Virus record (IMG/VR): IMGVR_UViG_3300026077_000001
Length of the DNA: 64,000 bases
DNA from: a virus
Lineage: Duplodnaviria > Caudoviricetes
Reading direction: 5' to 3' (one strand)
The position numbers and the translations under genes are program-made. Below, in pieces: positions 1-22,189 of the stretch (the first letter of the stretch is position 1; each line of letters starts with the position of its first letter). The notes below the pieces were generated by a model. The model ran no database searches, was not told the origin of the DNA, and saw nothing but the letters and a program-made list of their open reading frames with translations.

Positions 1-1365
1 ATTCCTGGCTTATATGATTGGGTGGTCAGTTTTGATCTCAACAGTCTATATCCTCATCTCATTATGCAGTACAACATTAGCCCAGAGACGCTTGTCGAAA
101 GAAGGCATCCCACCGCCAGTGTTGATGGACTGCTCAACCAAACTGTTTCTGTCGGAGGGGACTATGCTGTGTGTGCCAACGGAGCACAATACCGCAAAGA
201 CATCCACGGATTTCTCCCAGAGATGATGCAACGCATCTACGATGAGAGGACAATATATAAGAAGCGTATGCTTCATGCAAAGCAAGAGTATGAAACAAAA
301 CCAACAGACAAACTCAGACGAGACATTGCTAAGTTTAATAACATCCAAATGGCAAGAAAGATCCAACTTAACTCTGCCTACGGTGCTATCGGTAACCAAT
401 ACTTCAGGTATTACAATCTTGCGAACGCTGAGGCAATCACTCTATCAGGACAAGTCTCAATCCGATGGATAGAAAACAAGGTAAACAAATACCTAAACAA
501 TGTATTAAAAACTAACGAGAAAGATTATGTTATTGCTAGTGACACTGATAGTATTTACATCCATATGGGTCCTCTGGTACAAGCTGTATTCCCCAGTGGA
601 GAGAAGGACGATCAGAGTACACTTAGGTTCCTTAAAAAGGTGTGTGATGTGGAACTTGATCGCTATATTGAGAGTGCTTATCAAGAAATGGCAACCTATG
701 TAAATGCATACGAGCAGAAGATGGTCATGAAGCGAGAGAATATCGCTAACAAGGGTATCTGGACTGCTAAGAAAAGATATATTCTTAACGTATGGAATAG
801 TGAGGGTGTCCAGTATGAGAAACCTAAACTAAAGATGATGGGTATCGAAGCAGTTAAGTCTTCTACACCTGCACCATGTCGTGTCGCTATTAAAGAAGCA
901 CTCAATGTTATTATGACTGGTAGTGAGTCTGACACACAGAAATATATCAAGGACTTCCGTGAGAAGTTTGAAGCAATGCCACCAGAGGAAGTAGCATTCC
1001 CACGTGGTTGTAATAATATACAGAAGAATACATCTTCGGCCACTATCTATGGTAAGGGATGCCCTATGCATGTGCGTGGAGCGTTGTTGTACAACTTCCA
1101 CATTAAAAAGAATAAGTTGTACCACAAGTATCCTGTTATCCAAGAGGGTGAGAAGATTAAGTATCTTCATCTACGTACCCCAAACCGAATCAATGAGAAT
1201 ATTATCTCATTCTTTCAAACACTTCCCACCGAGTTTGGGCTTGACAATAGTATAGATTATGATTTACAATTTGAGAAGAGTTTCCTTGCTCCTCTTAAAG
1301 CAATCCTTGATACTATTGGGTGGGAAGCAGAGAAACGTCACACATTAGAGGCACTATGGTCTTAA
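1..1365 (+). CDS. gp43: DNA polymerase B family, T4 gp43-like (5'-truncated by window edge)
   Basis: Frame 1 open from nt 1; motifs SFDLNSLYP, KIQLNSAYG, ASDTDS, KKRY, KMMGIEAVKSSTP. Confidence 0.98.
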   Translation: MPGLYDWVVSFDLNSLYPHLIMQYNISPETLVERRHPTASVDGLLNQTVSVGGDYAVCANGAQYRKDIHGFLPEMMQRIYDERTIYKKRMLHAKQEYETKPTDKLRRDIAKFNNIQMARKIQLNSAYGAIGNQYFRYYNLANAEAITLSGQVSIRWIENKVNKYLNNVLKTNEKDYVIASDTDSIYIHMGPLVQAVFPSGEKDDQSTLRFLKKVCDVELDRYIESAYQEMATYVNAYEQKMVMKRENIANKGIWTAKKRYILNVWNSEGVQYEKPKLKMMGIEAVKSSTPAPCRVAIKEALNVIMTGSESDTQKYIKDFREKFEAMPPEEVAFPRGCNNIQKNTSSATIYGKGCPMHVRGALLYNFHIKKNKLYHKYPVIQEGEKIKYLHLRTPNRINENIISFFQTLPTEFGLDNSIDYDLQFEKSFLAPLKAILDTIGWEAEKRHTLEALWS

Positions 1366-1622
1366 TATCCTGTCCACCAGTCTATCATTTACCTGGCACA
1401 TGGACTAAATGTAAGGGAGCAGTCATCCCTCACTTCAATCTAACACCTGGTCAGGGGTTTGGTGTATTCATGGGTCTGTTAGTGGTAGCACTAATGATCT
1501 ATGGTCTCTACATGACCTTTGGTAGTGGTGGTAAAGATCTCAGAGATGAGATAGACGAGCATTCTAAGATGCATGAGTTAGGAATAGCACATGGACATAG
1601 CCCAAGAACGAAACACAAATAA
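1356..1622 (+). CDS. PsbN-like small membrane protein, copy 1
   Basis: One TM helix then [18 protein letters not shown], resembling PsbN YxxFG..LxDP.EH; ATG 1356 overlaps gp43 stop; paralog at 26783. Confidence 0.65.
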
Positions 1623-1624
1623 TT

Positions 1625-2632
1625 ATGAGTTTTCTAAAAGATATTGTCAAGGAGATAGACAATGAATACGCTAGTGTCGTTGCTGATGGTGTTGCTGCTG
1701 GCGATACAAGTGGTTATATCGACACGGGTTCATACATCTTTAACGCACTACTCAGTGGCTCCATCAAAGGTGGGGTTCCAGGAAACAAAATCTCTGCTAT
1801 TGCAGGTGAGTCATCAACAGGCAAAACTTTTTTCTGTCTTGGTATGGTTCAGTCTTTCCTCGAATCTAATCCTGATGCTGGGGTTATTTACTTTGAGTCT
1901 GAAAGTGCGATAAGTAGAGAGTTAATTGAGTCAAGAGGTATTGATTCCAATCGTATGGTATTGGTGCCAGTTAATACTGTCCAAGAGTTTAGGACACAAA
2001 GTATTAAGATTCTTGACAAATATTTGGAACAGAAGGAACAAAAGCCTATGCTTATGGTGTTAGACTCCCTTGGTATGTTGTCTACCTCCAAAGAGATGGA
2101 GGACTCCGAGCAAGGTAAAGAGACACGTGATATGACACGTGCTCAAGTAGTCAAGTCTATCTTCAGAGTGCTGACACTGAAGTTAGGAAAGGCAAACGTG
2201 CCTTTAATTGTGACTAACCATACATATGATGTGGTGGGTGCATATGTGCCGACCAAAGAGATGGGTGGAGGTAGTGGTCTCAAGTATGCTGCCAGTAACA
2301 TCATCTACCTTAGCAAGTCTAAGGAGAAGGATGGGAAGGAAGTAATTGGTAACATTATCAAAGCTAAATTGGTTAAGTCAAGGTCAGCAAAAGAAAATTC
2401 TCAAGTTGCAGTACGATTATTTTATGACGAACGTGGATTGGATCGCTATTACGGATTACTGGAGTTGGGTGAGAAGCACGGAGTTTTTGACCGCAAAGGA
2501 AATAGGATTGTTATCAATGGCGATACTGTTTTCCCTTCGGTCGTTTATAAGAATCCCGATAAATACTTCTCGTCCGAAATCCTACAAGCCCTAGACGAGT
2601 GTGCTGCTAAAGAATTCTCTTATGGAACTTAA
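1625..2632 (+). CDS. uvsX: UvsX RecA-like recombinase
   Basis: Walker [28 protein letters not shown]. Confidence 0.97.
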
Positions 2633-3182
2633 AGACTTTATCAAGGTCTACGATGACGTGCTAGACCTTAATCTATGCAGAAATGCTATTGATTTATTTG
2701 AGCATGACACCGAAGTAGTTACTCGTCAAGAAGTACAAGACTTCTGTAAGTTTAACATGTTAAACATGACAGAAGAGACTGAGACGAATAATAAAAAAGA
2801 TTGGACAGTAGTCCATACGCAGGCAATCTATGCTGTTAAACAGTATGGTGAGCAATACATGAAGGAGTTAGACTGTGAGTCATTTTGGCCTAAGGCAAAC
2901 TCCCTAGAGCAGATCAAGATGATTAAGTATGGTAGACAGGATTACTTCAAACGTCACATTGATGTGGGAGATTACCAGTCTGCACGAAGATTTCTTTCTT
3001 ATTTTATTTTCTTGAATGATGTTGTCGAAGGAGGAGAGTTAAAGTTTCCTCTCTTAGACTTGTCAATCCAACCCAAACGTGGTAGGGTTGTCTTATGTCC
3101 GTCCTCATGGCAGTATCCTCATGAATTTGGGGTGCCAAGTAACGACAGTTATATGATAACAACATATCTGCACTACAAATGA
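2622..3182 (+). CDS. 2OG-Fe(II) oxygenase (prolyl-hydroxylase-like)
   Basis: HID ... [12 protein letters not shown] ... YPH double-stranded beta-helix motifs; ATG 2622 preferred over GTG 2601. Confidence 0.85.
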
Positions 3183-4549
3183 CACTAAAGATTGAAGAGA
3201 TTACCCTTAGTAAACTTATCCTCAACGAGAGTTACTGTAGAAAGGTTATGCCTTTCATTAAGAGGGAATACTTTGATGGACATCCTAATGGTGTCTTGTT
3301 TGAAACATTAACAGAGTATGTAAGTAACTTTGATACCAACCCAGAGCCTAATGCTTTGAAGATTGAGGTTGAGAAGAGACGTGACATAACTGAGGATGTA
3401 TATAAGGACATTGAAAGGTTTCTTGATAACTTAGATAGAGACCAATATAATGAAGACTGGCTTGTAGATACCACTGAGAAGTGGTGTAAAGAGCGAGCAA
3501 TATATCTCGCACTGATGGAATCTGTACAGATTGCTGATGGGCAAGACAAAACACGCACAAAGGATGCAATTCCAAGCATCATGTCTGAGGCATTGGGTGT
3601 ATGTTTTGATGATCATGTAGGACACGATTACATACAGGACTCTGATGACAGATATGACTTCTATCACAAGAAGGAAGAGAAGGTTCCCTTTGATCTCGAT
3701 TATTTCAACAAGATTACCAAAGGTGGTTTACCTAACAAGACTCTTAATATCGCACTTGCTGGTACAGGTGTCGGGAAGTCTCTATTCATGTGCCACGTGG
3801 CTAGCTCCATGTTGCTCCAAGGGCGGAACGTACTCTACATTACAATGGAAATGGCAGAGGAGAAAATTGCTGAACGAGTTGATGCCAACCTCTTGGACAT
3901 CCCCATCCAACAACTCAACAGTCCCCTCCTCACAAAAGAAAAGTACTCCTCCAAGTTGCTTCAGTTAAAGAAGAAGACACAAGGTAAGTTAGTAATCAAA
4001 GAATATCCTACAGCGTCTGCACATGTAGGTCATTTTAAGGCACTCTTAAATGAATTGTCATTGAAGAAAGGTTTCAGTCCTGATGCTATCTTCGTTGACT
4101 ACCTAAACATCTGTGCATCAGCTAGATATAAAGGGACTATAGTTAATAGTTACACATATGTCAAAGCAATTGCGGAAGAACTCAGAGGATTGGCAGTGGA
4201 GTTCAATGTACCTATCATCTCTGCAACCCAAACAACTCGTAGTGGGTTTGCTAACAGTGATGTCGATCTTACTGATACCTCTGAGTCATTCGGTCTTCCC
4301 GCTACTGCTGACCTTATGTTTGCTCTTATCAGTACAGAAGATATGGAACAACTCGGACAAATAATGGTCAAGCAGTTGAAGAATAGGTATAATGATCCTA
4401 CAATGTATAAGCGTTTCGTCATAGGTATTGACAGAGCGAAGATGAGGCTGTATGATTGTGAGCAAGCAGCTCAGGATGACATCATCGATGCAGGTGATAT
4501 CGAACCTGTCACACAAACCAAGAATAAATTTGAGGGACTCAAAGTATAA
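3179..4549 (+). CDS. gp41: Replicative DNA helicase gp41
   Basis: AGTGVGKS Walker A, FVDYL, SATQTTR, KQLKNRY. Confidence 0.97.
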   Translation: MTLKIEEITLSKLILNESYCRKVMPFIKREYFDGHPNGVLFETLTEYVSNFDTNPEPNALKIEVEKRRDITEDVYKDIERFLDNLDRDQYNEDWLVDTTEKWCKERAIYLALMESVQIADGQDKTRTKDAIPSIMSEALGVCFDDHVGHDYIQDSDDRYDFYHKKEEKVPFDLDYFNKITKGGLPNKTLNIALAGTGVGKSLFMCHVASSMLLQGRNVLYITMEMAEEKIAERVDANLLDIPIQQLNSPLLTKEKYSSKLLQLKKKTQGKLVIKEYPTASAHVGHFKALLNELSLKKGFSPDAIFVDYLNICASARYKGTIVNSYTYVKAIAEELRGLAVEFNVPIISATQTTRSGFANSDVDLTDTSESFGLPATADLMFALISTEDMEQLGQIMVKQLKNRYNDPTMYKRFVIGIDRAKMRLYDCEQAAQDDIIDAGDIEPVTQTKNKFEGLKV

Positions 4550-5211
4550 TGGCAAAGAAATTTACCAATGAACCGCAAGGTAATGATGTGGAAGCAGCAG
4601 CAGAGAAGATTAACTCTGAAGCACGTGACCAGGTAGACAAAGCACAGAAAGATGTTGAGAAGATTAAGGAGGAAACTCCCCAGAAGATTGAAGACTTCGT
4701 TAATGACGACCGAATGGGTAGTGCTCCTAGGTCTAAAGGCATTGCTGCCGACAAGCTTAAAGATAGGGATAACAAGAAGGCAAAGAAGGGTAAGAAACAG
4801 GATAAATTTGAGATAGACCTAGACAACTACATGAAGTTTGTAGATAGGGTTACCTCTGATGCATCAAAAGATTACAATGCTTTGCTGTCTCGTTATGATG
4901 AGTTGCATAAAGCAGGTTGTAAGATTGAAAGACTAGACACTGCTGCATCTGGTATGGCATCAGAGGGTGGTGAGTTTATGGAGATTGTTAAGAAACTTAA
5001 GTTTCAAGGCAAACCATATGACAAGGCAACTAAAGAGCACCTAGAGAAAGAGTTGGGTGACATCATGTGGTATGTTGCACAAGCAGCACTAGCACTTGAC
5101 CTACGTCTTGATGAGGTTATCTATACCAACACTCTTAAGTTGGCAGCAAGATATCCTGGTGAGATGTTTAACGTCCACTACTCAGAAAATAGAGCACCTG
5201 GAGACATTTAA
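4549..5211 (+). CDS. mazG: MazG-like nucleotide pyrophosphohydrolase with ~85-aa charged N-terminal extension
   Basis: SEGGEFMEIVKK, ELGDIMWY, KLAARYP, SENR motifs of cyanophage MazG. Confidence 0.92.
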   Translation: MAKKFTNEPQGNDVEAAAEKINSEARDQVDKAQKDVEKIKEETPQKIEDFVNDDRMGSAPRSKGIAADKLKDRDNKKAKKGKKQDKFEIDLDNYMKFVDRVTSDASKDYNALLSRYDELHKAGCKIERLDTAASGMASEGGEFMEIVKKLKFQGKPYDKATKEHLEKELGDIMWYVAQAALALDLRLDEVIYTNTLKLAARYPGEMFNVHYSENRAPGDI

Positions 5212-5212
5212 A

Positions 5213-5347
5213 ATGGAACAACTTGATCTTGATAGAATTGCAACTGCACTTGAAAGAATTGCAGAGAAGCTAGACCATCTTCATATAGATGCTATAGATC
5301 ACAATCACGTTGAAGGTGATGTTAACACACACGCTAAAACTTGGTAA
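5213..5347 (+). CDS. Small hypothetical protein (44 aa)
   Basis: ATG 2 nt after mazG stop; stop overlaps next ATG. Confidence 0.6.
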   Translation: MEQLDLDRIATALERIAEKLDHLHIDAIDHNHVEGDVNTHAKTW

Positions 5348-5931
5348 TGAATTACATTCATAACAACTTAGGTGCACTTGAACCCCACGAGTGCACCTTT
5401 TTAATTAACTATTTTAAGCAGAACCCAGACAAACAAGTCGAAGGTCTTCTAGGATTTGGTGATTCTATGAGGGTATCTCCAGATGAGAAGAAGTGTACAG
5501 AGATATTTCTTTCATCAAATCTATTAATAGATCAGTTCATTTTTAAACCTGTTGCTAGGGTATTAAAAGAAACTTGTGAAGCATACATCAAAGAGTTTCC
5601 ATTCTTAGATAAGATAGGAGCGTGGCAAATAGCACCTAACTTTAAGATCCAACATTACAAACCAGGTGAAGGATACTTTAAAGAACATTGTGAGAATGAT
5701 GGTGGAACAGATGGTGATGCTGAGTATAGAGTTGTTGCTTGGATGATATATCTAAACACTGTTACTGATGGTGGAGAGACAGTATTCCCTACACAGAATG
5801 AACAGTTTAAACCTAACCGTGGTGATGTATTATTCTGGCCAGCATACTGGACACATCCACATCACGGAGTTGTATCCCCTTCACAAGATAAATATATCTT
5901 GACAGGTTGGTACAACTTTAGTGGCAGATAA
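5347..5931 (+). CDS. 2OG-Fe(II) oxygenase
   Basis: HCE, WMIYLN..GGET, HPHHG, KYILTGW. Confidence 0.88.
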   Translation: MNYIHNNLGALEPHECTFLINYFKQNPDKQVEGLLGFGDSMRVSPDEKKCTEIFLSSNLLIDQFIFKPVARVLKETCEAYIKEFPFLDKIGAWQIAPNFKIQHYKPGEGYFKEHCENDGGTDGDAEYRVVAWMIYLNTVTDGGETVFPTQNEQFKPNRGDVLFWPAYWTHPHHGVVSPSQDKYILTGWYNFSGR

Positions 5932-6931
5932 GGGAATTACAACACCATCAGCTCGATCTAGACTCATAGAAGATAATCCTGAGTGGAAATCTATTAGGCT
6001 GACATTACTTAAAAATACTTTGATGTATGATAAAACATCGAAGGAGGAGATTAAGTGTACTTGTAGGGAAGGTACTCAGGTCAAAATACAATCACCTAAA
6101 CTAGCTCAGTGTGGTCCAAACAAGAAGTCCAAGTGTGTACTAGCTAAGGTTGGTACTGCTGGACCTGGATATATTATGGTATCACATATACTTAAACCTG
6201 ATATAAAGACTAGGACTACTGATACTAAGAAAGCAGAACGAGCTGCTATGAAACAATTAGATAAAATATTAAAGGAGAAAGTTAAGTGTCTAGGAGAAGC
6301 AACAATATGTACACCTATAGGTAATATTGTAGGTGCTTGTGGTGTTGAAGAACTTAAAGGTACACCTAAAGCAGATTTTGCTATCGTAGATAAGAAGGGT
6401 AAGGAGATATTTTGGATATCACATAAGAAGACAGGTGGTGCAAAAGCATTTCAACAGTATGGTGGTGTGTCTAAGTCAGCAGGAAGGAAGATAGCAATGC
6501 ACGAACAAACACAGAACTTCTTACAACAGACTACTGCGTATGTAGATGATGATCAATTACAAGTACCAGTAATGAAGGAAATAAAGGATGAGAATTTAAT
6601 TCGTATGTCAGTGTTTGGTCCTGATGCAGATGGTAATAGTACAAAATTTGGTAAGAATAATTGTCACGTTTTAGGTCAAGGCAATGCAGTTATGACTTGG
6701 AAAGAAGATAACTGTTGGGATTTGAAATGGGAACATACTGTCTGGAACAATCGTAATGGTGTAGATGCTTTCACGAAAGGTGATGGTTATCAAGCAGTCT
6801 TTGGTGCTACCTTCCGTAAGGATAGAGGATTCACATATCTGGAACAGAAATATAAGGGTGCACGTGTGGGGATTTACCCAAAAGCATTGATGGAAGGTCG
6901 AACTAATGTTATAGTATTAAAGGACGCATAA
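5921..6931 (+). CDS. Putative PD-(D/E)XK restriction-endonuclease-like protein
   Basis: PKADFAIVD...WISHKK and FQQYGG resemble a PD..(D/E/S)xK core; no nearby methyltransferase. Confidence 0.5.
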   Translation: MADKGITTPSARSRLIEDNPEWKSIRLTLLKNTLMYDKTSKEEIKCTCREGTQVKIQSPKLAQCGPNKKSKCVLAKVGTAGPGYIMVSHILKPDIKTRTTDTKKAERAAMKQLDKILKEKVKCLGEATICTPIGNIVGACGVEELKGTPKADFAIVDKKGKEIFWISHKKTGGAKAFQQYGGVSKSAGRKIAMHEQTQNFLQQTTAYVDDDQLQVPVMKEIKDENLIRMSVFGPDADGNSTKFGKNNCHVLGQGNAVMTWKEDNCWDLKWEHTVWNNRNGVDAFTKGDGYQAVFGATFRKDRGFTYLEQKYKGARVGIYPKALMEGRTNVIVLKDA

Positions 6932-6935
6932 TAAT

Positions 6936-8132
6936 ATGGCTACTAAGAACACCCATCTCGAACACTTAGAAGATGACATCCTAAACCAAGGTTCCAAGGG
7001 TGGTAAGAATGCTATTGCTTTCCTGAAAGAACTAGGAAAGATGTTGACAGAACCCAAGAGTGCTATTACTGTCACTACTAAATGGGATGGAGCACCTGCT
7101 ATTGTATGTGGTGTCAATCCTGAGACAGAAGCGTTCTTTGTGGGAACTAAATCAGTATTCAATAAGACCAATCCTAAGATCATATATGTTGAGAGTGATA
7201 TAGAATTCCACGGTTATAGTGGTGAACTAGCAAAGAAATTAAAACTAGCATTGAAATATCTAAGTACACTTAAGATTAAGGGTGTACTACAGGGTGATAT
7301 GTTATTCAGTAATGGTGATAAGGTTAGGAAGCAAATAGATGGTAAGTCTTGTATTGCTTTCACACCTAATACTATTACCTATTGTGTAGAGAAAGGATCT
7401 GATATCTATAAGGAAGTTAATGCTGCAGAGTTTGGTATTGTATTCCATACAAAATACAGTGGTTCTGATATGGCATCTATGAATGCAGTATTGGGTGATG
7501 TTAGTGGGAGTTTTACTAAGACTGCTAAGGTATTCTCAGGTACTGCTACGTTCAAGGACGTGTCAGGACAGTCAACATTCACACCAAAAGAGAAGACTGC
7601 CTTCAATGCTCAGGTCAATAAGACACACGGATCATTGAAGCAAGCATCTAAGTTCTTAGATATACTTGGTGGCACAGGTGATGGTAGGTTTTTATTCTCT
7701 GCTCTATTCAAACAGTACTTTAACTCTTATGTGAGAACAGGTAAACCAATTACTAACGTACAAAAAGTAGCAGCAGGATTTGAAGGCTTCTATGTCACGC
7801 TATTAGATAAGCAAATTAATTCAGTTAAACAACCTACTACTAAAAAGAAATATCAAAAGATAAAAACAGACGGACAAAAGTTTTTAAAGCAGAATGCAAG
7901 GGCAGTTTATATGACTGTGGCATCCTATATGAACCTAATATCCGCAAAAAATATAGTTATTAAGAAACTTAATGCAGTAAAGAGCGTAGGCACCTATCTC
8001 AAGACTGACAAAGGGTTTAAGGTTACTTCTCCCGAAGGATTTGTGGCAATAAAATCAGGAAAAGCACTCAAACTTGTTGACCGAGTTGAATTTTCCCGTG
8101 CCAACTTCACAATAGAGAAGAACTGGGGGTGA
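6936..8132 (+). CDS. Conserved T4-like marine phage protein (DUF6267-like) with ligase-type nucleotidyltransferase motifs
   Basis: KWDG (motif I), QGDML (III), EGFVA (IV), KLVDR (V); no obvious OB domain. Confidence 0.65.
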   Translation: MATKNTHLEHLEDDILNQGSKGGKNAIAFLKELGKMLTEPKSAITVTTKWDGAPAIVCGVNPETEAFFVGTKSVFNKTNPKIIYVESDIEFHGYSGELAKKLKLALKYLSTLKIKGVLQGDMLFSNGDKVRKQIDGKSCIAFTPNTITYCVEKGSDIYKEVNAAEFGIVFHTKYSGSDMASMNAVLGDVSGSFTKTAKVFSGTATFKDVSGQSTFTPKEKTAFNAQVNKTHGSLKQASKFLDILGGTGDGRFLFSALFKQYFNSYVRTGKPITNVQKVAAGFEGFYVTLLDKQINSVKQPTTKKKYQKIKTDGQKFLKQNARAVYMTVASYMNLISAKNIVIKKLNAVKSVGTYLKTDKGFKVTSPEGFVAIKSGKALKLVDRVEFSRANFTIEKNWG

Positions 8133-8138
8133 TAAATA
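8132..8138 (+). promoter_or_regulatory. T4-type late promoter upstream of the cytidylyltransferase-like gene
   Basis: ATAAATA ~25 nt before ATG 8164. Confidence 0.6.
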
Positions 8139-8163
8139 ATAAACGACAACCAATTATATTGCG

Positions 8164-9378
8164 ATGAAGTTAAGTCAATTCTTATCTGAGGCACGTACTG
8201 TTGCAGGTGAAGCTGCAGCTAAAAGAGGACTTGCACACGCAGGTCACGGTTACTATGCTGACAGGGCAGGGAACATTGTTGCCAAGTCTGTTGGTGGTGA
8301 GCGTCTTGTAGCTGTAGATAAGAAAGAAGCAGAGGAAGCTACTGTAGGATCAGCACAAGGTGAGGCAGAAGATGCACATCTTCCTGAGAAAGGTGGTGAA
8401 GGTCTAGGACATATCGCATTAACATTTGGTCGTTTTAATCCTCCTACTATTGGACACGAAGCACTCTTAGATAAGGTTGCATCTGAAGGTGCTGATAATT
8501 ACAGGATCTATCCTAGTAGGACAGTGGATAGGAAATCTAATCCACTAGAACCAGAAACAAAGATTCAGTATATGCAATCGATGTTTAAAGAACATTCAGA
8601 AGCCATCGTTAACGATGCTGATATGTCAAACATCTTTAACGTACTGTCTACTCTCAATCAAGAGGGTTATTCTGGTGTCACTATGGTTGTTGGTTCTGAT
8701 CGTGTGTCAGAATTCAAAGGACTTCTTGAGAAATATAATGGTGTTGCATACGAATTCGAAGAACTCGAAGTAGTATCAGGTGGGCAGAGAGATCCCGATG
8801 CCGAAGGTGTTGAGGGTATGTCTGCATCTAAAATGCGTGCGTTTGCTGCTGAAGGAAACCTTGAATCATTTGAACAGGGGTTACCTAAAGGGTTTAGTGA
8901 CGCTAAGAAATTAATGAAAGAAGTTCGTATTGGAATGGGTCTACCACCAGAGGTAGAAGTTGAAGCAATTGAAACTGAACCTAAGAAGAAAAAGGTTACA
9001 GAACTCTGGAAGATTGCACCTAAACTTGCTCAAGAAGATTTGCGTGAAGCATATATATCAGAGCAGGTATTCAGTATCGGTACTTTAGTAGAGCATACAG
9101 ATACTGGTGTCCGTGGTGAAGTGGTACAACGTGGAACTAACTACGCTACCTTTAAAGATGAGCACGGATGGGAATTTAAAGTATGGTTAACTAGTTTAAC
9201 AGAAGTTGCAGATGCTTCAATCAAAAGAGATGACCAATCAAACTTCTCTGCTGATGATGGATCAGGCAACACTTGGAAAGTCGGTACTGATGAGTATAGA
9301 CAAGCAGTTCAAGCACTAACACCTGGTCAAGGTGTAGTGAAGTTCAGTCATTTCCGAAAACAAACCCCTACTAAATAG
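8164..9378 (+). CDS. HxGH-family nucleotidyltransferase (cyanophage 'cytidyltransferase'), extra C-terminal domain
   Basis: FGRFNPPTIGH, VGSDR, SASKMR; N-terminus MKLSQFLSEA. Confidence 0.88.
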   Translation: MKLSQFLSEARTVAGEAAAKRGLAHAGHGYYADRAGNIVAKSVGGERLVAVDKKEAEEATVGSAQGEAEDAHLPEKGGEGLGHIALTFGRFNPPTIGHEALLDKVASEGADNYRIYPSRTVDRKSNPLEPETKIQYMQSMFKEHSEAIVNDADMSNIFNVLSTLNQEGYSGVTMVVGSDRVSEFKGLLEKYNGVAYEFEELEVVSGGQRDPDAEGVEGMSASKMRAFAAEGNLESFEQGLPKGFSDAKKLMKEVRIGMGLPPEVEVEAIETEPKKKKVTELWKIAPKLAQEDLREAYISEQVFSIGTLVEHTDTGVRGEVVQRGTNYATFKDEHGWEFKVWLTSLTEVADASIKRDDQSNFSADDGSGNTWKVGTDEYRQAVQALTPGQGVVKFSHFRKQTPTK

Positions 9379-9399
9379 TAATTACAAAGAATTAGTCAG

Positions 9400-10791
9400 A
9401 TGGATTTAACTCTTACGTCAAAACTCCTGAAGTATAGTCCTTCAGACGTACAAGCGGTACGTTATACAGTATCTTATGCCAAGAATAACTTTCAAGGTGA
9501 TGCTGTGGATGATTATATTCAAGAGCACTGTAAGTCACGTGCCAAGTTGGAGATAGCAGAGATCTTTTTAGGTGAGACCTCCAATGCAAACACTATTAGT
9601 GCTAAGTCAAGTGCTGCCAGTGGTAAGATTGACAAGATCAAAGAGAAGCCATCGACTGAGGGATCTACTTCCCCTGCAATGAAGTCTATTGAAGCAAAAG
9701 GCGATGCAAAGAAAGTAGGATACAAAGGTGGACTAGAAGGTACTGGTACTAATGTTGTACAGAAAGAAGAGACCGACTGGATCGCTGATGTCGTAGAAGA
9801 ATTAGGTGATGAGTTCGATGAGTTGACTGATGAGGATTTGGAGAATGTTATCCTCGAAGCACTAAGCGAACTAGACTCCGAAGAATTAATTACTGAGGCT
9901 TTAGATTCCTTTGAAGATCTAGAGTTATTAACAGAAGCACCATCAAAGCATTCAGCATTCCCTAATGTTGCAGTGCAGAAACCTCAAAAGGAAAAGCCTG
10001 CACGTGATGCTGGTGCAATTGCTAAGAAGCGTTTATCAGATAAACAGGGATCTAAACCTGCTAAGTCAGATAAACCTAGCCGTATGGCTCGTCTTGGTAA
10101 TGCTGCTAAGAGAGTAGGATCAGCCGTTAAGTCTGGTGCTAAATCAGTAGCTAAAGGTGCAGTTAAAGGTGCGGGTTATGCTACTGGTTTAGCACAACGT
10201 GCGGCTTCAACTACTAAGAAAGAGTTCTCTAAAGGTAGAGAGCGTGGTCTTAAAGGTAGTGGTGCGAAGAAGGCAGTTGCTTCTTCTTCAGGATCTGGAT
10301 CTTCAGGATCTGGTGACACTCCCACTTCAAACTTAGCGAAGACTTCTTCTACAACCACAACAACCACAACAACAGGTGGTGGCGGTGGTTCTGGTGAAAC
10401 AAAACCCAAGAAAAAATCTCTATTACGTCGTGCTGCAGGTGCGATAGGTAGAGGTCTCAAAAAGGTCGTGGGTAAAACCTCACGTGCTGTTTCTAAGGGT
10501 TCCGATAAACTAGCAAGGAAACTTGGAGAAGACTCCACTATGGAAAACAAAGTACAACGTGTTCGTCAGATACTTGCGATGCAAGAAACTGCTGCTCACG
10601 ATAAGAGATCACTAGATGCTAATGCTAACTCTTGGAGAGAGCGTCTTGGTTGGGACTTAGAAGAAGAGAAGACTCCTGAGCAAAAGAAGAAGTCTGATGT
10701 TCTTAAGCAAACCAAAGATCTTACAAACAAAGGTAAGCACAAAGAAGCATCTGCTTTATTCAAAAAACATTTCCCTAACTTTGGTAAATAA
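9400..10791 (+). CDS. Putative head-internal protein with acidic L/I-x-E-rich block and basic low-complexity block
   Basis: CTAAATA at 9371-9377; ILEA, ITEA, LTEA motifs; S/G/T runs. Confidence 0.6.
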   Translation: MDLTLTSKLLKYSPSDVQAVRYTVSYAKNNFQGDAVDDYIQEHCKSRAKLEIAEIFLGETSNANTISAKSSAASGKIDKIKEKPSTEGSTSPAMKSIEAKGDAKKVGYKGGLEGTGTNVVQKEETDWIADVVEELGDEFDELTDEDLENVILEALSELDSEELITEALDSFEDLELLTEAPSKHSAFPNVAVQKPQKEKPARDAGAIAKKRLSDKQGSKPAKSDKPSRMARLGNAAKRVGSAVKSGAKSVAKGAVKGAGYATGLAQRAASTTKKEFSKGRERGLKGSGAKKAVASSSGSGSSGSGDTPTSNLAKTSSTTTTTTTTGGGGGSGETKPKKKSLLRRAAGAIGRGLKKVVGKTSRAVSKGSDKLARKLGEDSTMENKVQRVRQILAMQETAAHDKRSLDANANSWRERLGWDLEEEKTPEQKKKSDVLKQTKDLTNKGKHKEASALFKKHFPNFGK

Positions 10792-10793
10792 CT

Positions 10794-11246
10794 ATGGCTA
10801 AAAAGGTGAAGGGTAAAAAAACCACCGTAATTGTTAACCCCAAAAAGGACGATCTAATGAAAGAGGACATCAAAAGATTACTTCGTAGTGAAGTTGATAG
10901 CTTGCGTGAAGCAGCTAAGAAGAAGCTCGATCCTGTAGGGAAGGAAGACAAGGACATCGATAACGATGGTGACAAGGACAACTCTGACACATATCTTCTA
11001 AACAAAAGGAAGAAGATAACTAAAAGTGTCACAGGTAAAACACCCAAGCACCTTTGTGCTAAGTATGTCGAACATAAAGAGTTCGGTGTATGCGAGACCA
11101 TTCCTGGTGCTCACGATCTAGTGGAGCAAGAGGATGGATCTTATAAAGTATTTCATTATGACCTCAAGGATGAGTCAGGTAACCTTTATGAGGACGTATC
11201 TATTGAGGACTTCGAAGTAATAGTAGAGATGGAGCACGCTCACTAA
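10794..11246 (+). CDS. Hypothetical late protein with DxDxDG motif
   Basis: GTAAATA at 10784-10790; LDPVGKEDKDIDNDGDKDNSD. Confidence 0.65.
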   Translation: MAKKVKGKKTTVIVNPKKDDLMKEDIKRLLRSEVDSLREAAKKKLDPVGKEDKDIDNDGDKDNSDTYLLNKRKKITKSVTGKTPKHLCAKYVEHKEFGVCETIPGAHDLVEQEDGSYKVFHYDLKDESGNLYEDVSIEDFEVIVEMEHAH

Positions 11247-13042
11247 TGAAAAGTTTTAAATCCTTTAATGAAGCTGTTGCTAACAAGAAGCAATCTGATG
11301 CTATAGCACAAGCAAAGTTAGATCGTAAGTCTGCACTTAAAGTTAAGTCTGTTAAGTACAGAAAGGAGAACAATCAGGTTGGTGACCCTAACTCTAGTGC
11401 ACCTGAACAGAATTTCTCTGAAGCTAAGGTAGATGCTGGTAAGTCTCCTGAAACAAAAGAGAAGGATAGGAACGTACGTAAGTTTGGTGTAAGTCATAAC
11501 GTATCAGGTCACGGTAAACTAAGAAGATCTCTTCATAGGATGAACCGTGGAGATAAAAAGATACCTGGTGATAAGTCTAAATGGATGGAGATGGAAGGGA
11601 AGGATTACGGTATCACTAGGGGAGATGGTAAACCAAAGGGTGTTATGAAAGCATACCTTGATGCCAAAGCAAAGAAATTAAGTAAAGAAAAGGCAGCACA
11701 AAAGCCTGAGTATAGAAACAACCCTGCATTTGGTGATCCATCACATCATTCAAACAGAAAGAACATTAAAGAATTTGTAGGAACAACTATAGCTGGAACT
11801 GCTGGAGCAGCGACTGCAAAGAAAGGTGATAAGGTTCGTAAGGCAGTTGGTTCTGGTGCAGGATATGCAGTAGGTTCCACAGCTGGTCGTGCAGCTGGTG
11901 GTGCAGTTGGTCAAGCAGTAGGTAGAGCAACGGTTCCTATTGTTGGTGGTGCAGTTGGTAAACAGGTAGGTAAAGTAATTGGTGGTACTGCAGGCGGTGT
12001 AGCAGGTGCTGTTGCAGGTAACAAGTTAGCTGGTACATCAAAGAAGAAAGTAAAGGAAGAGGTAGAATTAACTGAAGCTCCTGGAGTTAGTACAGCTATA
12101 TCTCAAGGTGTTAAACAAGGTGGTAAGTGGGCTGTTCGTCAAGGAATAAAAGTTGGTGGTAAACAAGGTGGTTACGCTGTAAAGAAAGCAGGTAAATATG
12201 CAGGACAAGCTGCTAAAGAAACTGCTGTTGAATATGGTAAAGGAGCACTTAAAGGTGCTAAAGAAAGAGCTGGTAAAGCAGGTGAACGTCACGCAAAGAA
12301 TTTAAGTCTGCCACAACAGACAACTAACGAAGGTCTTGCTACTGCAGGTGGATTAACTTATAAAAAGTCTGAAAAACCAGGTAAATTTGAAAAAGCAGGT
12401 AGAGTTGTAGGTGGAATTGGTGGAAGTATTGGTGGCAGTATAGGTGGTGCTGCAGCTGCAGGTGCTGCAGGTAGTGTCGTACCTGTTGCAGGTACTGCTG
12501 CAGGTGGAATTGCAGGAGGAATTGCAGGAGGAGTTGCTGGTGATATAGCTGGCACAAGAACTGGTGGTTCTATAGGTCAAAAAATTGATAAATTAACAGG
12601 TGGAAACAAGAAACCAGTTGCTAAGAAGACTACTGCAGTTACTAAAGAGTCTAAAGACATTGCAGATATACTTGCAAGACTAGAGAAGAAACGTATCAGT
12701 AAGGGTGGAGACGCAAAGGACTCACCACTACCTGCGTTCCGTAAGTATCACGCTGACAAAGATAAGAAGAAGAAAGAAGTAAAAGAAGATGTGATAGGTG
12801 AAGAAGGTTACGATCACTGGAGAGACAAACAACTTGAGAAGTATGGTACTGGGTGGAGATCTAATGACAGACCTAGACCATCATCAGGTGGTGGAAAGCA
12901 CAGTGGTAACGATAAGATGACCAAGAAGAAGAACTCTGACAAGGCATTGGACAGTGTAGTAAGTGACCTCAAGAAAAAATATGGGGACAAAGCTGTGCTA
13001 GTATCAAAGAGAAAGTACAGAGGAGGCAAGAGAGTACAATGA
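11246..13042 (+). CDS. Putative head-internal modular protein with two glycine-zipper segments
   Basis: N-terminus MKSFKSFNEA; GxxxG repeats; Lys-rich modules separated by x-x-E motifs. Confidence 0.6.
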   Translation: MKSFKSFNEAVANKKQSDAIAQAKLDRKSALKVKSVKYRKENNQVGDPNSSAPEQNFSEAKVDAGKSPETKEKDRNVRKFGVSHNVSGHGKLRRSLHRMNRGDKKIPGDKSKWMEMEGKDYGITRGDGKPKGVMKAYLDAKAKKLSKEKAAQKPEYRNNPAFGDPSHHSNRKNIKEFVGTTIAGTAGAATAKKGDKVRKAVGSGAGYAVGSTAGRAAGGAVGQAVGRATVPIVGGAVGKQVGKVIGGTAGGVAGAVAGNKLAGTSKKKVKEEVELTEAPGVSTAISQGVKQGGKWAVRQGIKVGGKQGGYAVKKAGKYAGQAAKETAVEYGKGALKGAKERAGKAGERHAKNLSLPQQTTNEGLATAGGLTYKKSEKPGKFEKAGRVVGGIGGSIGGSIGGAAAAGAAGSVVPVAGTAAGGIAGGIAGGVAGDIAGTRTGGSIGQKIDKLTGGNKKPVAKKTTAVTKESKDIADILARLEKKRISKGGDAKDSPLPAFRKYHADKDKKKKEVKEDVIGEEGYDHWRDKQLEKYGTGWRSNDRPRPSSGGGKHSGNDKMTKKKNSDKALDSVVSDLKKKYGDKAVLVSKRKYRGGKRVQ

Positions 13043-13344
13043 GTTGGTTACCCGATGACTTAGGTCCTATGGCTCAATTTGATGAGCGTGTATTAGCACA
13101 GTTCAATGATGCTAAATCAAAGAAGAGGATACAAGATAACGAGGATAAGAATACCGAGCAGAAATTAAAGATGGTGCACGGTAAGAAGAAGGTCGGTAAG
13201 GATTGGAGAAAGTTTAAGTCTGAATTAGATCAGAAAAAAGCAGACGAGAAGAAAAATGCACGTGTAGATAAGAAGAAAGGAGTACGTGCTCTATCAGGTG
13301 GCAAGTGGGGTTACGTTAAGGATGGCAAATTTAAGTCTGATTGA
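13039..13344 (+). CDS. Lys-rich hypothetical protein
   Basis: ORF coupled to upstream stop. Confidence 0.65.
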   Translation: MSWLPDDLGPMAQFDERVLAQFNDAKSKKRIQDNEDKNTEQKLKMVHGKKKVGKDWRKFKSELDQKKADEKKNARVDKKKGVRALSGGKWGYVKDGKFKSD

Positions 13345-13364
13345 TCATATATACTTCTAGATAA

Positions 13365-13565
13365 TTGACTAGAGTTATGATTAACTTCTTAATGCCCATT
13401 GCTATTAGCATCATTAACAAAGCTATTGATAGAATACCAGAAGATCTGGATTCTGTTATCAAAGACTTTGTTATTAAGATCCTAAAGAAAGCAGCTGCCA
13501 AGACTGATAATAAGGTTGACGATGAACTCGTTGCTGCAGTCGCTAAGGCACTACTCGAATCTTAG
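13365..13565 (+). CDS. Small conserved hypothetical protein
   Basis: KAAAKTDNKVDDELV pattern familiar from cyanophage/cyanobacterial small proteins. Confidence 0.65.
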   Translation: MTRVMINFLMPIAISIINKAIDRIPEDLDSVIKDFVIKILKKAAAKTDNKVDDELVAAVAKALLES

Positions 13566-13570
13566 TAGCA

Positions 13571-13578
13571 TATAAATA
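13571..13578 (+). promoter_or_regulatory. T4 late promoter
   Basis: Exact TATAAATA upstream of ATG 13613. Confidence 0.75.
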
Positions 13579-13612
13579 AAACATAGAACAGTACAAATCT
13601 CTGGAGATACCA

Positions 13613-14440
13613 ATGGCAGTCCACGGAAAAATAGATGCTGCAGCCTTTAGTAATACTATAGGGGTCGTTAATGGCGACGCTACAGTAACTAAAAATGCTG
13701 GGGACTCTGTAGTTGTAGGTGATGTGCTAAACATTAGTAGTGTAAACTATATTGTTAAGCAAGTAACTAGCACTACTGCAATAGAATTGCACAAGAATTA
13801 TGCAGGAAGCACAGCAACTGTTGCTGCTGCATCCGTTATAAGGAGAACACCTCCTAAAGCAGTCGCAGAATACGTCATCAAAGGTGGTGACAGTAATTCA
13901 AACTACGACTTAGTTTTTGTTGATACATCTGAAGATGGTATCGCATCAAACAAAACTCGTGGTATCACTGGACCTGGTTGGTGGCTGTATCAAACTTATC
14001 AAACACATAATGGTACTGAACGTCACAAGGCAGAGTGTTTAGTTCCCCTCAAGGTTGCTGCTGGTACAGCAGGTGACTTTGCTCAGGATACTATTGACGC
14101 TGATGTCAACGAGACAATCACAGTCGGTACACAACCTGCTAACTCTACTTCTTCTAGTGGTGCTGGAACATTCGTTGCTGCATTCACAGTGGATCAGTCT
14201 GGTACTAAGGTTTACAAGTGGCAACGTCAGACAGCAAATGCAACTACTCGTTGGGTAGATATTGCTGCTGGTACTGATACTGGTATCACATACGCTGACT
14301 TCACTACAGCAACACTTGCTTACAGTGGACTCGCAGGTACTACACTTAACGGTTATAAGTATCGTTGCGTACTTAACACCAGTAAGGGTGCTGAGACTAA
14401 GTATACCAATGGAGCAGCGACTCTAACATTTGGTAGTTAA
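13613..14440 (+). CDS. Virion structural protein with C-terminal Ig-like domain
   Basis: Thr/Ala/Gly beta-rich; YKWQ...YRCV Ig-like pattern; late promoter. Confidence 0.7.
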   Translation: MAVHGKIDAAAFSNTIGVVNGDATVTKNAGDSVVVGDVLNISSVNYIVKQVTSTTAIELHKNYAGSTATVAAASVIRRTPPKAVAEYVIKGGDSNSNYDLVFVDTSEDGIASNKTRGITGPGWWLYQTYQTHNGTERHKAECLVPLKVAAGTAGDFAQDTIDADVNETITVGTQPANSTSSSGAGTFVAAFTVDQSGTKVYKWQRQTANATTRWVDIAAGTDTGITYADFTTATLAYSGLAGTTLNGYKYRCVLNTSKGAETKYTNGAATLTFGS

Positions 14441-14456
14441 TTTTATTTAATTTGGT

Positions 14457-14828
14457 ATGAATTTTAGTAATCTCAATGCGGAGAACTTCTTGTTCTTCGC
14501 AATGAAGCATTACGACAACCCCCAGTCTGTGACATACGATGACTTCCTTGAAGATATGATGAGGTTTAAGTATCTCAAAAGACTCTTTGGAAGGTATGTT
14601 AAGACTGGGGTGTTACGTAATCATTTGATCTTGAATCATCTTATAGTACTGTTTAATGTATTTGGTGAGGCAGCGATCCCCCTACTTGTTTATAAACTAG
14701 AGAAACAGTACTGGGATATTCTGAAAACCTATCTGGTGTATATCAATAGATATCCTGAACAAGGATGTGGGACGCTAGATTTTGTAGAGGTCGATCCCAT
14801 AGTAAGTAAACAGTTATCGGAACTATAA
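14457..14828 (+). CDS. Conserved T4-like cyanophage hypothetical protein
   Basis: FAMKHYDNP, LILNHLIVLFNVFG. Confidence 0.8.
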   Translation: MNFSNLNAENFLFFAMKHYDNPQSVTYDDFLEDMMRFKYLKRLFGRYVKTGVLRNHLILNHLIVLFNVFGEAAIPLLVYKLEKQYWDILKTYLVYINRYPEQGCGTLDFVEVDPIVSKQLSEL

Positions 14829-15502
14829 TGAATCTAACTGACAAAGTTAAGCAAGGAATTGACAATGCCATACTAGAGAGACTAGGTGGTAAAGGTTACT
14901 CTAGGAAAGCCACTGGAGGTGGAGGTGACTGGGAAGATTCAGACAGAGGTGAAGGTAATAAGGCAACTAGAAGAGCAGGTGGTAAGGTAAAGGTAAAGAG
15001 TCCTACCTACATTGCTCACGTTAAGAATAAAAAGTTGAAGGAGGATGCTCCTACAATGAGTGCAGGTTCAGATCCTGCAGGTTTTAGTAACGATGCTGAT
15101 AATAATGGTCCTGTTGCAGGAGTAGATCAACCTTTAGGTGGTACACAGAAACAACCTAGTGGTAAGGGAGCAAAGAAAGCACTTAAGTATAAGTGTAAGA
15201 AGAGTAAAGACGGTGTGAATGAAATTGATTGTCGTGTTAAGAGTAATGTAAAAGAGGGAAGACAACCTGATGATGCTGCATCATCTGGTAACCCACGGTA
15301 CTTACCATTCAAAGTCAGGTGTGATAGTCCTACCTGTCCTGGATGTATGGAGTTTATATACTATGGTAAGTCACCTGCTGAGGTAAAGATTGAACTCAGA
15401 AAGATATACAGACCAGAGAGACTAAAGCATTTAACAATTACTAGGGTATACCCTGCTGATGTATTGAAGTACTACTGGGATAAGCGTAGGGCAGCAATGT
15501 AA
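14828..15502 (+). CDS. Hypothetical modular basic protein
   Basis: ILER, LKEDAP, VKEG motifs; CxxPxC near C-terminus. Confidence 0.65.
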   Translation: MNLTDKVKQGIDNAILERLGGKGYSRKATGGGGDWEDSDRGEGNKATRRAGGKVKVKSPTYIAHVKNKKLKEDAPTMSAGSDPAGFSNDADNNGPVAGVDQPLGGTQKQPSGKGAKKALKYKCKKSKDGVNEIDCRVKSNVKEGRQPDDAASSGNPRYLPFKVRCDSPTCPGCMEFIYYGKSPAEVKIELRKIYRPERLKHLTITRVYPADVLKYYWDKRRAAM

Positions 15503-15888
15503 TGTCAGATATAAATGGAGCAATACTGGAGCGACTGGAAAAGGTCGTTGATAAACTCTCCGAGAACTCTTCTAAGATGGGGGAGTTACTTGCTGTTCAT
15601 AATGAGAAGTTAGATAAACAGGATAGAATTGATGCTGTACTCTTTGAAAAGATAGAGTCAGTTCATAGAGAAATTAATAGGAGATCAGATGAGATCAAGA
15701 AAGGATGTGAACGAGACATACGAAAGGTCGATGACCGTCTTCGCACGATGGAAAAGAAGATGTGGTCTATTTTTGGTGCTCTTTCTATTATATCTGTCAT
15801 CGTTAGTCCAATCGGACAATCGGTCCTCAGGAACTTGACAGAAACTACTCCACCATCTATAGTAAATTCAGGCGATATGATTATGTGA
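15502..15888 (+). CDS. Conserved coiled-coil protein with C-terminal TM segment
   Basis: Heptad-rich, then WSIFGALSIISVIV. Confidence 0.7.
   Translation: MSDINGAILERLEKVVDKLSENSSKMGELLAVHNEKLDKQDRIDAVLFEKIESVHREINRRSDEIKKGCERDIRKVDDRLRTMEKKMWSIFGALSIISVIVSPIGQSVLRNLTETTPPSIVNSGDMIM
15835..15863 (+). promoter_or_regulatory. Sigma70-type promoter for primase/nrd genes
   Basis: TTGACA-N17-TATAGT. Confidence 0.7.
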
Positions 15889-16877
15889 GTTACATTGACA
15901 TCAAGTACGCTCGCCTAGTAGGTGGACGACTTGATAAATTCAAAGAAAAGAAATCAGGACTATACAACTTCCGTTGTCCTTACTGTGGTGACTCAGAGAA
16001 GCACAAGAGTAAGGCACGGGGGTATTTTTTTCTCAAGCAGAACGATTTAATATACAAGTGTCATAACTGTGGTGTTGGTAGAACACTAGGTAACTTCCTC
16101 AAAGATCACGCACGTGATTTGTTTGATGAGTTTGTGTTGGAAAGATATAAAGAAGGACTAACAGGTAAGCATAGGAGGGCACCAAATCCTATAATCAAAA
16201 CATCAAAACCAAAGTTTAAAACTAGTACTAACCTCCCAAATATTGCATCGCTAAATAAAGAACATCCAGCACGTGAATATCTTGAGCAACGTAAGATTCC
16301 AATCGACAAATTGGAACATTTGTATTACGCTGATCACTTCAAACAGTATGTAAACTCGGTAAAACAAACCTTCGATAGTTTGAAGAATGATCAACCCCGA
16401 ATCATCATCCCTCTTAAGGATGAGGATGGTAGTATGTTCGGGTTACAAGGGAGATCTTTAGATCCTATTTCGAAGTTACGTTATATAACTATTATCTTTA
16501 ACGAGGACAAACCCAAACTCTTCGGTCTCGACCGCATTAATTATGAAGAACCCATTTACATCGTCGAAGGACCAATCGACTCGCTCTTCTTGGTCAATTC
16601 CGTTGCGATGGCTGGGTCTGATGTTAATATTAGGTCGCTTGGTTGGAGCGATTATATTTGGGTTTATGATAACGAGCCTCGGAACAAACAAATCGTTGAT
16701 CGAATCGAAGCAGCCATCGATAGAGGAGATCAAGTAGTTATCTGGCCAGATGGAATTGTTGAAAAGGACATCAATGATATGGTGTTGGGTGGACAAAATG
16801 TGCAGAATCTAGTACAATCAAATACGTACAAAGGACTGCAAGCAAAATTAAAACTATCACAGTGGAAAAAAGTATGA
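15885..16877 (+). CDS. gp61: DNA primase gp61
   Basis: CPYCGDS...CHNC zinc finger; VEGPIDS TOPRIM. Confidence 0.96.
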   Translation: MSYIDIKYARLVGGRLDKFKEKKSGLYNFRCPYCGDSEKHKSKARGYFFLKQNDLIYKCHNCGVGRTLGNFLKDHARDLFDEFVLERYKEGLTGKHRRAPNPIIKTSKPKFKTSTNLPNIASLNKEHPAREYLEQRKIPIDKLEHLYYADHFKQYVNSVKQTFDSLKNDQPRIIIPLKDEDGSMFGLQGRSLDPISKLRYITIIFNEDKPKLFGLDRINYEEPIYIVEGPIDSLFLVNSVAMAGSDVNIRSLGWSDYIWVYDNEPRNKQIVDRIEAAIDRGDQVVIWPDGIVEKDINDMVLGGQNVQNLVQSNTYKGLQAKLKLSQWKKV

Positions 16878-20357: not shown

Positions 20358-20635
20358 TTTTTTGGATTGGATTCTTCGTTATGTTTTTTAACGAAGGTTT
20401 TGTTATGATGAGACACGTGTCACCTTGGTTTGCAAGACGTAGACAAGGTTTCATTGATAAATTTGGTGAGAATATATGGTATAGGTTCCACGGTACATTA
20501 GATTATGTTTGGATGGGACTAGTCACACTAGGATTAATAGTTAACTCTCACAGAGTACTACACATAATGGTGTTACTAACATTCTGGACTTTAGCTTGGA
20601 TGATATTTTATCTACCGAGGTGGATCAAGAGATGA
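20354..20635 (+). CDS. Hypothetical membrane protein
   Basis: Several hydrophobic stretches; coupled to nrdB. Confidence 0.65.
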   Translation: MIFWIGFFVMFFNEGFVMMRHVSPWFARRRQGFIDKFGENIWYRFHGTLDYVWMGLVTLGLIVNSHRVLHIMVLLTFWTLAWMIFYLPRWIKR

Positions 20636-21824: not shown

Positions 21825-21940
21825 CACCTGACTTTTATAAGAAGATGCATAAGTTAAAACCAAAAGGTTCACGCAGATACAAAAAGTAGTTTTAGCTACA
21901 AAAGTTGCTAAATAGTTGTGCATATGCTAACATATGCATA

Positions 21941-22157
21941 CGTTCGCCCTTCGGGGTGCAAGTAGGTCACGGAACGGAGCGTTCATCCTGATGATTCCTA
22001 TTCTATTAGCCACTTCTATATCTTGTTCTGATGCTAATGTTCTTATCGATAAGATAAACACATTTAATGTTGATGAAGAAGTACGTGCTGAAATGATTCA
22101 GGTCGTAAAGGAAGAGGTAGACTGGTGTAATTGGGACGCAAATGTCTGAAGGAACGG
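21941..22157 (+). ncRNA. Tandem glnA-type (glutamine riboswitch-like) aptamers
   Basis: Unit 1: CGTTC(21941)/GAACG(21972) with GCCC-TTCG-GGGT hairpin and GCAAGTA. Unit 2: CGTTC(21980)...GCAAA..CTGAAGGAACG(22156). Upstream of DUF4278 gene; matched to consensus from memory. Confidence 0.6.
21991..22149 (+). CDS. 52-aa ORF nested in the riboswitch-like element
   Basis: MIPILLATS...CNWDANV*; stop codon lies within CTGAAGG. Confidence 0.6.
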   Translation: MIPILLATSISCSDANVLIDKINTFNVDEEVRAEMIQVVKEEVDWCNWDANV

Positions 22158-22189
22158 GGCTAAAAATCCTACTACTTTGGAGTAAAACA

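Follow-up and report, generated by a model that had tools for sequence, protein, structure and literature searches.

Avoidance of restriction sites is a familiar feature of phage genomes: the Staphylococcus phage K-like myoviruses are without GATC, and site-poor genomes are found among Bacillus phages and among the cyanophages of Anabaena and Nostoc. T4-like phages, including the cyanomyoviruses, are equally familiar for modular evolution and homologous recombination, with joints at gene ends and small mobile cassettes between core genes, and such exchanges are frequent in wild cyanophages. Both themes bear on the DNA considered here, a stretch of 64,000 nucleotides (hereafter, the window) from the IMG/VR virus record IMGVR_UViG_3300026077_000001 (Caudoviricetes), which, by its gene content, belongs to a T4-like cyanomyovirus. 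The tetranucleotide CATG is present at an ordinary density in the short left part of the window (block A), which carries the replication genes from gp43 to mazG, and it is absent from the entire right part (block B). The two blocks have different ancestries, and we lean, without great confidence, towards the view that the window is a natural recombinant of two deeply diverged marine T4-like cyanophage lineages.

A preliminary description of the window had listed 21 CATG sites in the first 5 kb and none from 5068 to 64000. A computed scan recovers all 21, adds one that had been overlooked (at 2756), which gives 22 sites in positions 1–5067, spanning 274 to 5064, and finds none in the remaining 58.9 kb, where about 193 would be expected from a Markov model based on trinucleotide counts. 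For the first 5 kb, the same model predicts 27.7 sites, so that the 22 observed there represent an ordinary density. The earlier estimate of a first block at expectation, with some 200 sites missing elsewhere, is therefore sound; its figure for the GC content (about 37%) was too low, the computed value being 39.8%. Shuffling the whole window with its dinucleotide counts preserved yields 289 ± 17 CATG sites versus the 22 observed. Of the 136 strand-symmetric tetramers, CATG alone behaves as an on/off switch between the blocks (binomial test of A vs B, p = 1e-24); the runner-up in patchiness by the same test, GAAC/GTTC, differs only 2.4-fold (p = 2e-5), and an equally extreme patchiness of unrelated tetramers, which would have spoken against the preliminary description, was not found. 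CCGG and GCGC are missing from both sides of the boundary, and CGCG is nearly so (one site, in block B), such that only CATG marks the boundary.

The ancestry of each block was traced through its relatives in metagenome assemblies. Lineage A is the CATG-normal lineage that matches the left arm, and its contigs (from Tara, other ENA, JGI, and NCBI sources) were picked by the presence of the exact MazG protein of the window; lineage B is the CATG-free lineage that matches the right arm, and its contigs were picked by the exact protein of the second oxygenase gene, which occurs in 54 blocks of the collection on contigs of up to 135 kb. Block A proved to be 99.7–100% identical at the nucleotide level to CATG-normal contigs from at least 10 assemblies (L001 and L173–L182). 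The contigs with the exact MazG match the window from 791, at their leftmost reach, to 5358, after which they enter other genes with CATG at a normal density; L001, from IMG/VR, is a member of lineage A without the small cassette described below. GATC follows the same division, with an observed-to-expected ratio of 0.51 in block A, 0.33–0.51 in lineage A contigs, and 0.93–0.97 in block B and its relatives. To the right of 5199, the window is 99.94% identical to the lineage B contig L194 (4 mismatches in 6.7 kb) and about 99.9% identical to L185–L193.

The relatives of block B have no CATG in 12.6–21 kb, and this sequence includes their own gp43-uvsX-gp41-mazG genes; a count of zero was also obtained for the native replication genes of L185–L190 and L204. 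These native versions differ from those in the window: in lineage B, gp41 encodes 463 amino acids and mazG 216, and the corresponding window proteins are 65% (gp41) and 52–57% (MazG) identical to them. Upstream of gp43, lineage B relatives have purM and lack a ferredoxin gene at the matching place. The proposal in the preliminary description that the gp43-to-mazG block has a different origin from the rest is thus borne out, both by the near-identity of this block to a CATG-normal lineage and by the different, CATG-free version carried by the relatives of the rest. The same description took the lack of CATG in uvsX as a hint of finer mosaicism, and this idea has to be given up: uvsX is 99.95% identical to lineage A and continuous with it, and only 2.6 sites are expected in it by the Markov model (its relatives hold 0–3). 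As for the PsbN-like open reading frame (ORF) downstream of gp43, it is typical of lineage A contigs, and its exact protein is found in 59 blocks of the collection; lineage B has no such ORF at this place, and its gp43 is followed directly by uvsX.

Separate gene trees, which had been proposed as a check on the two origins, disagree with one another. The gp41 tree, built from 102 sequences, unites all 16 CATG-free loci in a single clade, block B's closest relatives among them, and the window groups with L001 inside purely CATG-normal clades (supports of 99, 96, and 95). In the DUF6267 tree, the window is found with L081, L082, L085, and L086 in the CATG-free group (support of 100). When the window's gp41 is constrained to the CATG-free clade, the log-likelihood drops by 154 units, and this placement is rejected by the approximately unbiased (AU) test (p = 1.3e-5).

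The two ancestries meet in a small cassette that contains a 44-codon ORF and separates mazG from the second oxygenase gene. This cassette is near-identical in lineage A (L173–L181 and L184) and lineage B (L082–L085 and L185–L194), and it is missing from other members of each (L001 in lineage A; L081, L086, and L107 in lineage B). Its A and B versions are about 98% identical, with 3 differences in 160 bp, and the identity of the flanking genes is 55–75%. A per-base comparison shows that the window has the A allele at 5206, where L185–L193 differ from it, and the B alleles at 5341 and 5353, where L173–L175, L179–L181, and L184, whose match ends at 5358, differ from it; to the left of the cassette, the bases are again A-specific (e.g., AGAGCACC at 5191–5198). 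Hence the switch in ancestry lies within 5207–5340, over which the nearest relatives on both sides are identical, and not near the last CATG (5064/5067), where the preliminary description had placed the boundary; the site at 5064 is no more than the last CATG of block A. Each flank is therefore near-identical to a different lineage, and the crossover falls inside a stretch in which the two parents are identical, which are two of the properties expected of a natural recombination joint. Another candidate joint, at 5199–5207 and marked by a 9-nt microhomology at the stop codon of mazG, had come from a comparison with L001 and L082–L085, and it was rejected on finding that closer lineage A relatives also carry the cassette.

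The cassette has a history of its own. Since it is present in some members and absent from others in both lineages, and since a diverged copy is found elsewhere, it acts as a small cassette recently moved between lineages. That copy, in L195 (at around 600–740), lies in an unrelated context behind a promoter-like TATAAT. The 44-codon ORF itself gives only a sub-threshold match to Imm32 (E = 0.003). To judge from these sequence comparisons, the cassette proves that DNA passes naturally between lineages A and B at this very spot.

How might the window have arisen? If it is a natural recombinant, the gp43-uvsX-gp41-mazG module of lineage A would have been taken up whole and would have replaced the native CATG-free module, most likely by homologous recombination during co-infection, with a crossover inside the 134 bp of perfect identity that form part of the circulating 44-codon cassette. 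Such an event would be very recent because both arms are at least 99.9% identical to their parents and because block A keeps the CATG density and the GATC deficit of the donor. A second hybrid of the same kind exists in the collection (L191/L217/L222, Tara contig ERR599137 k127_368958), in which 31 kb from another CATG-normal lineage (100% identity to L219–L221) runs into 22.5 kb of lineage B (100% identity to L185). There are 25 CATG sites to the left of its joint and none to the right; the two sources agree fully over 98 bp at the 3' end of uvsX, and it is within this patch that the joint falls. Its mosaic UvsX, along with 1.18 kb of DNA that spans the joint, turns up again in the separate assembly of a further Tara run (L218, 99.6%), the runs concerned being ERR599137 and ERR599048. 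The patch is shorter than the k-mer of 127 used in those assemblies, and this recurrence favours natural recombination. On the foreign arm of this type of hybrid, a gene for a D12-class adenine methyltransferase is present, with gp62 on one side of it and three 2OG oxygenase genes on the other (L219:15742-16581, and correspondingly in L220–L222); this enzyme could protect imported sites if it were to methylate CATG.

The preliminary description had left open the choice between recombination and an assembly chimera, and it is exactly these two alternatives that remain. A third reading, in which block A is native, involves no transfer, and escaped the purge of CATG through locally relaxed selection or in a protected region, has nothing in its favour beyond the bare pattern of sites; the genes in question exist in a CATG-free version in block B's nearest relatives, another lineage matches block A at 99.9% identity, and the AU test rejects a common ancestry for gp41, so this reading is already refuted and is given practically no credence. 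An assembly chimera has to be taken far more seriously. Here, co-occurring A and B populations would have been mis-joined at the identical 134–160-bp cassette, and the hybrid molecule would not exist; this has an appreciable probability, though one short of even. Several observations weigh against a natural hybrid. The arrangement A-cassette-B was found nowhere outside the window among the contigs with the exact MazG or oxygenase, in IMG/VR, in the JGI contigs, or in four metagenome runs: all six of the exact-MazG contigs that run past 5358 (6/6) continue as lineage A, and all of the exact-oxygenase contigs that reach to the left of 5199 carry the lineage B mazG. A gapped pattern across the cassette gave 0 matches in IMG/VR and JGI metagenome contigs, and an exact junction 30-mer likewise gave none; a control pattern recovered a related contig, but the record of the window itself may have been masked in these searches. 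The four runs, which come from four studies, show only the parental forms, at unequal depths (11 vs 67, 12 vs 51, 6 vs 15, and 34 vs 8). Both arms are at least 99.9% identical to abundant populations, each of which is seen repeatedly with its own partner and never with that of the other; moreover, the parents co-occur in at least three samples (ERZ28655846, 3300020395, and ERZ841809). The joint itself lies in a perfect repeat, where assemblers can mis-join, and the short contigs L176, L177, L178, and L182 end inside the cassette, as they would at a graph branch. Finally, the imported block shows no sign of adaptation to its new context: it retains its 22 CATG sites and, compared with L001, has lost two and gained two. 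A 60-mer (5174–5233) detected in two runs only had been considered as support for the hybrid; it covers the edge between A and the cassette, which is common in lineage A, and is uninformative about A-cassette-B.

There are, however, points that an assembly chimera does not readily accommodate. At 134 bp, the repeat falls short of the largest k-mers commonly used (141), and the wrong crossing of such an X-junction requires the pruning of both correct partners. The cassette is itself evidence of recent natural exchange at this spot, and the analogous hybrid, which has a different donor and its joint in a 98-bp patch, was recovered in the separate assemblies of two runs despite k = 127. We favour, by a modest margin, the reading of the window as a natural recombinant, in which case the hybrid molecule would exist in nature. 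The features referred to above and below are collected in Table 1.

Table 1. Features of the window on either side of the change in ancestry, in order of position.
Feature	Position	Strand	Remarks
Block A	1..5198	+	22 CATG; PHROG and Pfam hits for its genes
gp43, C-terminal part	1-1365	+	PHROG/Pfam
PsbN-like ORF	1356-1622	+	Overlaps gp43 stop
uvsX	1625-2632	+	PHROG/Pfam
2OG-Fe(II) oxygenase	2601-3182	+	PHROG/Pfam
gp41 helicase	3179-4549	+	PHROG/Pfam
mazG	4549-5211	+	PHROG/Pfam
Cassette "s", 160 bp	5199..5358	+	44-codon ORF 5213-5347; common to both lineages
Crossover interval, 134 bp	5207..5340	.	Nearest A and B relatives identical throughout
Second 2OG-Fe(II) oxygenase	5347-5931	+	First gene of block B
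Block B	5359..64000	+	0 CATG, ~193 expected
336-amino-acid protein	5921-6931	+	SH3-like N-terminus; C-terminal domain resembles MspI/HhaI/HinP1I
DUF6267	6936-8132	+	PHROG/Pfam
Cytidylyltransferase-like gene	8164-9378	+	PHROG/Pfam

The absence of CATG is a trait of a whole clade and not of this genome alone, since it extends to 37 related loci (GC content of 37–45%) and to a 94%-complete genome of 171,756 bp (G002, IMGVR_UViG_3300020416_000001, which corresponds to L164–L172), in which 0 CATG are observed vs 584 expected. This genome is also without CCGG, and RGCY sites are nearly gone from it (AGCT 11/341, AGCC 3/102, GGCT 7/212, and GGCC 19/64); counts are zero for AGTACT, CAATTG, CGATCG, CTCGAG, GATATC, GTATAC, GTCGAC, TACGTA, and TTTAAA. 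Such a loss of many unrelated palindromes is what would classically be expected where several restriction enzymes have exerted pressure. No cultured CATG-free relative is present in the phage collection, where the identity of gp41 to that of the clade is about 70% for the best isolate and above about 71% for none; the five isolate or single-cell records checked (P-RSM6, P-SSM2, AG-345-O18, AG-345-L05, and S-SCSM2R) are all CATG-normal. In a limited search of the literature, CATG avoidance was not found described for marine cyanomyoviruses.

The avoidance of CATG has left its mark on the choice of codons in block B. Histidine before a codon starting with G is written CAC 78 times and CAT not once, as the preliminary description had remarked in view of the AT bias of the sequence, and before other codons CAT is used 148 times and CAC 84 times. 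A C-ending codon never precedes an internal methionine (0/318, with 14% expected), nor does an NCA codon precede TGN (0/80). Block A has none of these biases. The strong selection against CATG claimed at the outset is therefore upheld, as CATG is avoided wholly through synonymous codons or codons chosen according to context, and the loss of the site is common to the whole clade of related contigs. These observations support the conclusion that the loss of CATG was selected at the level of the DNA and not of the protein. By analogy, the selecting agent would be a CATG-specific nuclease.

Other lineages deviate in other ways. Partial depletion of CATG, with observed-to-expected ratios of 0.06–0.5, occurs in L045–L047, L108, L110, L111, L114–L121, L130, and L132, and the CATG sites that remain in these partly depleted lineages have no flanking bases in common; such lineages may be at intermediate stages or may have hosts that exert a weaker pressure. 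Among the loci L001–L227, CCGG is missing from almost every cyanomyovirus locus regardless of its CATG status, and GCGC and CGCG are missing from many. The CATG-normal loci L011–L014 and L037 are almost without GATC (0–3 vs 19–45 expected), and lineage A (L001 and L173–L175) has about half or less of the expected GATC. Since the GATC-poor and the CATG-free lineages are not the same, different lineages carry different site taboos.

What, then, removed CATG from this clade? The most likely cause would be long-standing cleavage at CATG by a restriction activity in the hosts. A more elaborate proposal is that the clade keeps its DNA free of CATG as a marker of self versus non-self, with a cutter that would be phage-borne or else an undescribed, widespread enzyme of picocyanobacteria; the taboo would then constitute a partial barrier to gene flow, and hybrids (the window and L191 among them) would be fresh breaches on which selection has yet to act. 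We consider this proposal unlikely. If it were true and the cutter were phage-borne, the imported block would have been rescued from a competitor whose DNA had been cut.

A candidate for such a phage-borne enzyme is encoded in the window itself, immediately after the second oxygenase gene. The protein of 336 amino acids has no Pfam hit, and its AlphaFold2 model (mean predicted local distance difference test score, pLDDT, of 79.7) has an SH3-like N-terminal domain. For the C-terminal domain (residues 100–320), the best matches of fold other than SH3 among 48,161 chains are MspI, HhaI, and HinP1I, with Z-scores of 6.7 (1sa3), 6.1 (6uke), and 5.7 (1ynm) over 147–171 residues, which is in the grey zone of the tool and may reflect a common arrangement only. 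The residues K150-A-D152 ... S167-H-K169 are invariant in the family, for which there are 153 unnamed metagenomic homologues. In every case the gene immediately precedes DUF6267, and this holds also for distant T4-like phages rich in GC. In the five distant carriers L223–L227, no shared absent palindrome and no adjacent methylase were found.

On this basis, it could be imagined that the phage clade encodes its own CATG cutter (e.g., this protein), that site-free DNA serves as the self-marker, and that the A block was rescued from a cut competitor, an idea that bears on the cause of the avoidance and not on the joint. The predicted fold would fit, in that MspI, HhaI, and HinP1I are monomeric cutters of 4-bp sites, and there is no methyltransferase beside the gene. 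Homologues are also enriched where CATG is rare, being found in 14 of the 37 CATG-free loci, 3 of the 15 CATG-poor loci, and 1 of the 104 CATG-normal loci; and three carriers in another, distant clade, L110, L111, and L132, are specifically poor in CATG (10/52, 3/16, and 2/32), with normal counts in eight sister loci that lack the gene. However, the fold similarity is in the range that may mean no more than a shared arrangement, the constant pairing with DUF6267 suggests another role, and a genome that both encoded a CATG cutter and held 22 CATG sites would cut itself. Moreover, a homologue is absent from G002 and from four other CATG-free contigs, 23 of the 37 CATG-free loci have no such gene at the syntenic place, and L137, like the five distant carriers, has normal CATG counts. 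The absence of the gene from G002 and the CATG-normal distant carriers tell against this protein as the general cause of the loss of CATG, and the wider idea of a cutter encoded by the clade seems to us very unlikely.

Whatever the enzyme, the complete loss of a 4-bp site over 170 kb or more, across a deep clade of abundant ocean phages, implies that marine picocyanobacteria or their phages exert a strong and lasting pressure by cleavage at CATG; no such pressure was found described for either in the literature searched. In practical terms, the CATG on/off switch is a simple marker by which recent exchange between lineages, or a chimeric contig, can be recognised in cyanophage metagenomes. Should the hybrids prove real, modules of core replication genes can move between lineages with helicases that are only 65% identical in protein sequence, and the hybrids offer natural material for estimating the rate at which such a taboo is restored; should they prove to be chimeras, a profile of CATG provides a cheap check on the quality of viral assemblies.

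Compared with known systems, the CATG-free clade resembles the site-avoiding phages in that a palindrome is absent from hundreds of expected positions, through synonymous codons and as an inherited property of a lineage, and in that further palindromes are missing (CCGG and GCGC, and in G002 also RGCY and nine 6-mers); it differs from them in having no cultured member in the collection searched. Set beside a typical chimeric metagenome contig, the window has the single joint in a repeat common to co-sampled populations and the arms near-identical to separately assembled parents; unlike such contigs, it brings together lineages that otherwise share almost nothing at this level of identity, its repeat is short (134 bp), and a comparable hybrid has been reproduced in two assemblies. 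With the mosaicism of T4-like phages, it shares a syntenic core module, a joint in a short identity at a gene boundary, a polymorphic ORF cassette, and discordant trees. It departs from the usual form of this mosaicism in that the partners are very distant (65% protein identity in gp41), in that the core of the replisome is exchanged, and in that the partners differ in a genome-wide site taboo, which is why the joint is visible as the on/off switch of one tetramer. Site avoidance and mosaic joints are, in themselves, already known kinds of observation; what is new here is a CATG-free clade of ocean cyanophages, together with hybrids that breach it.

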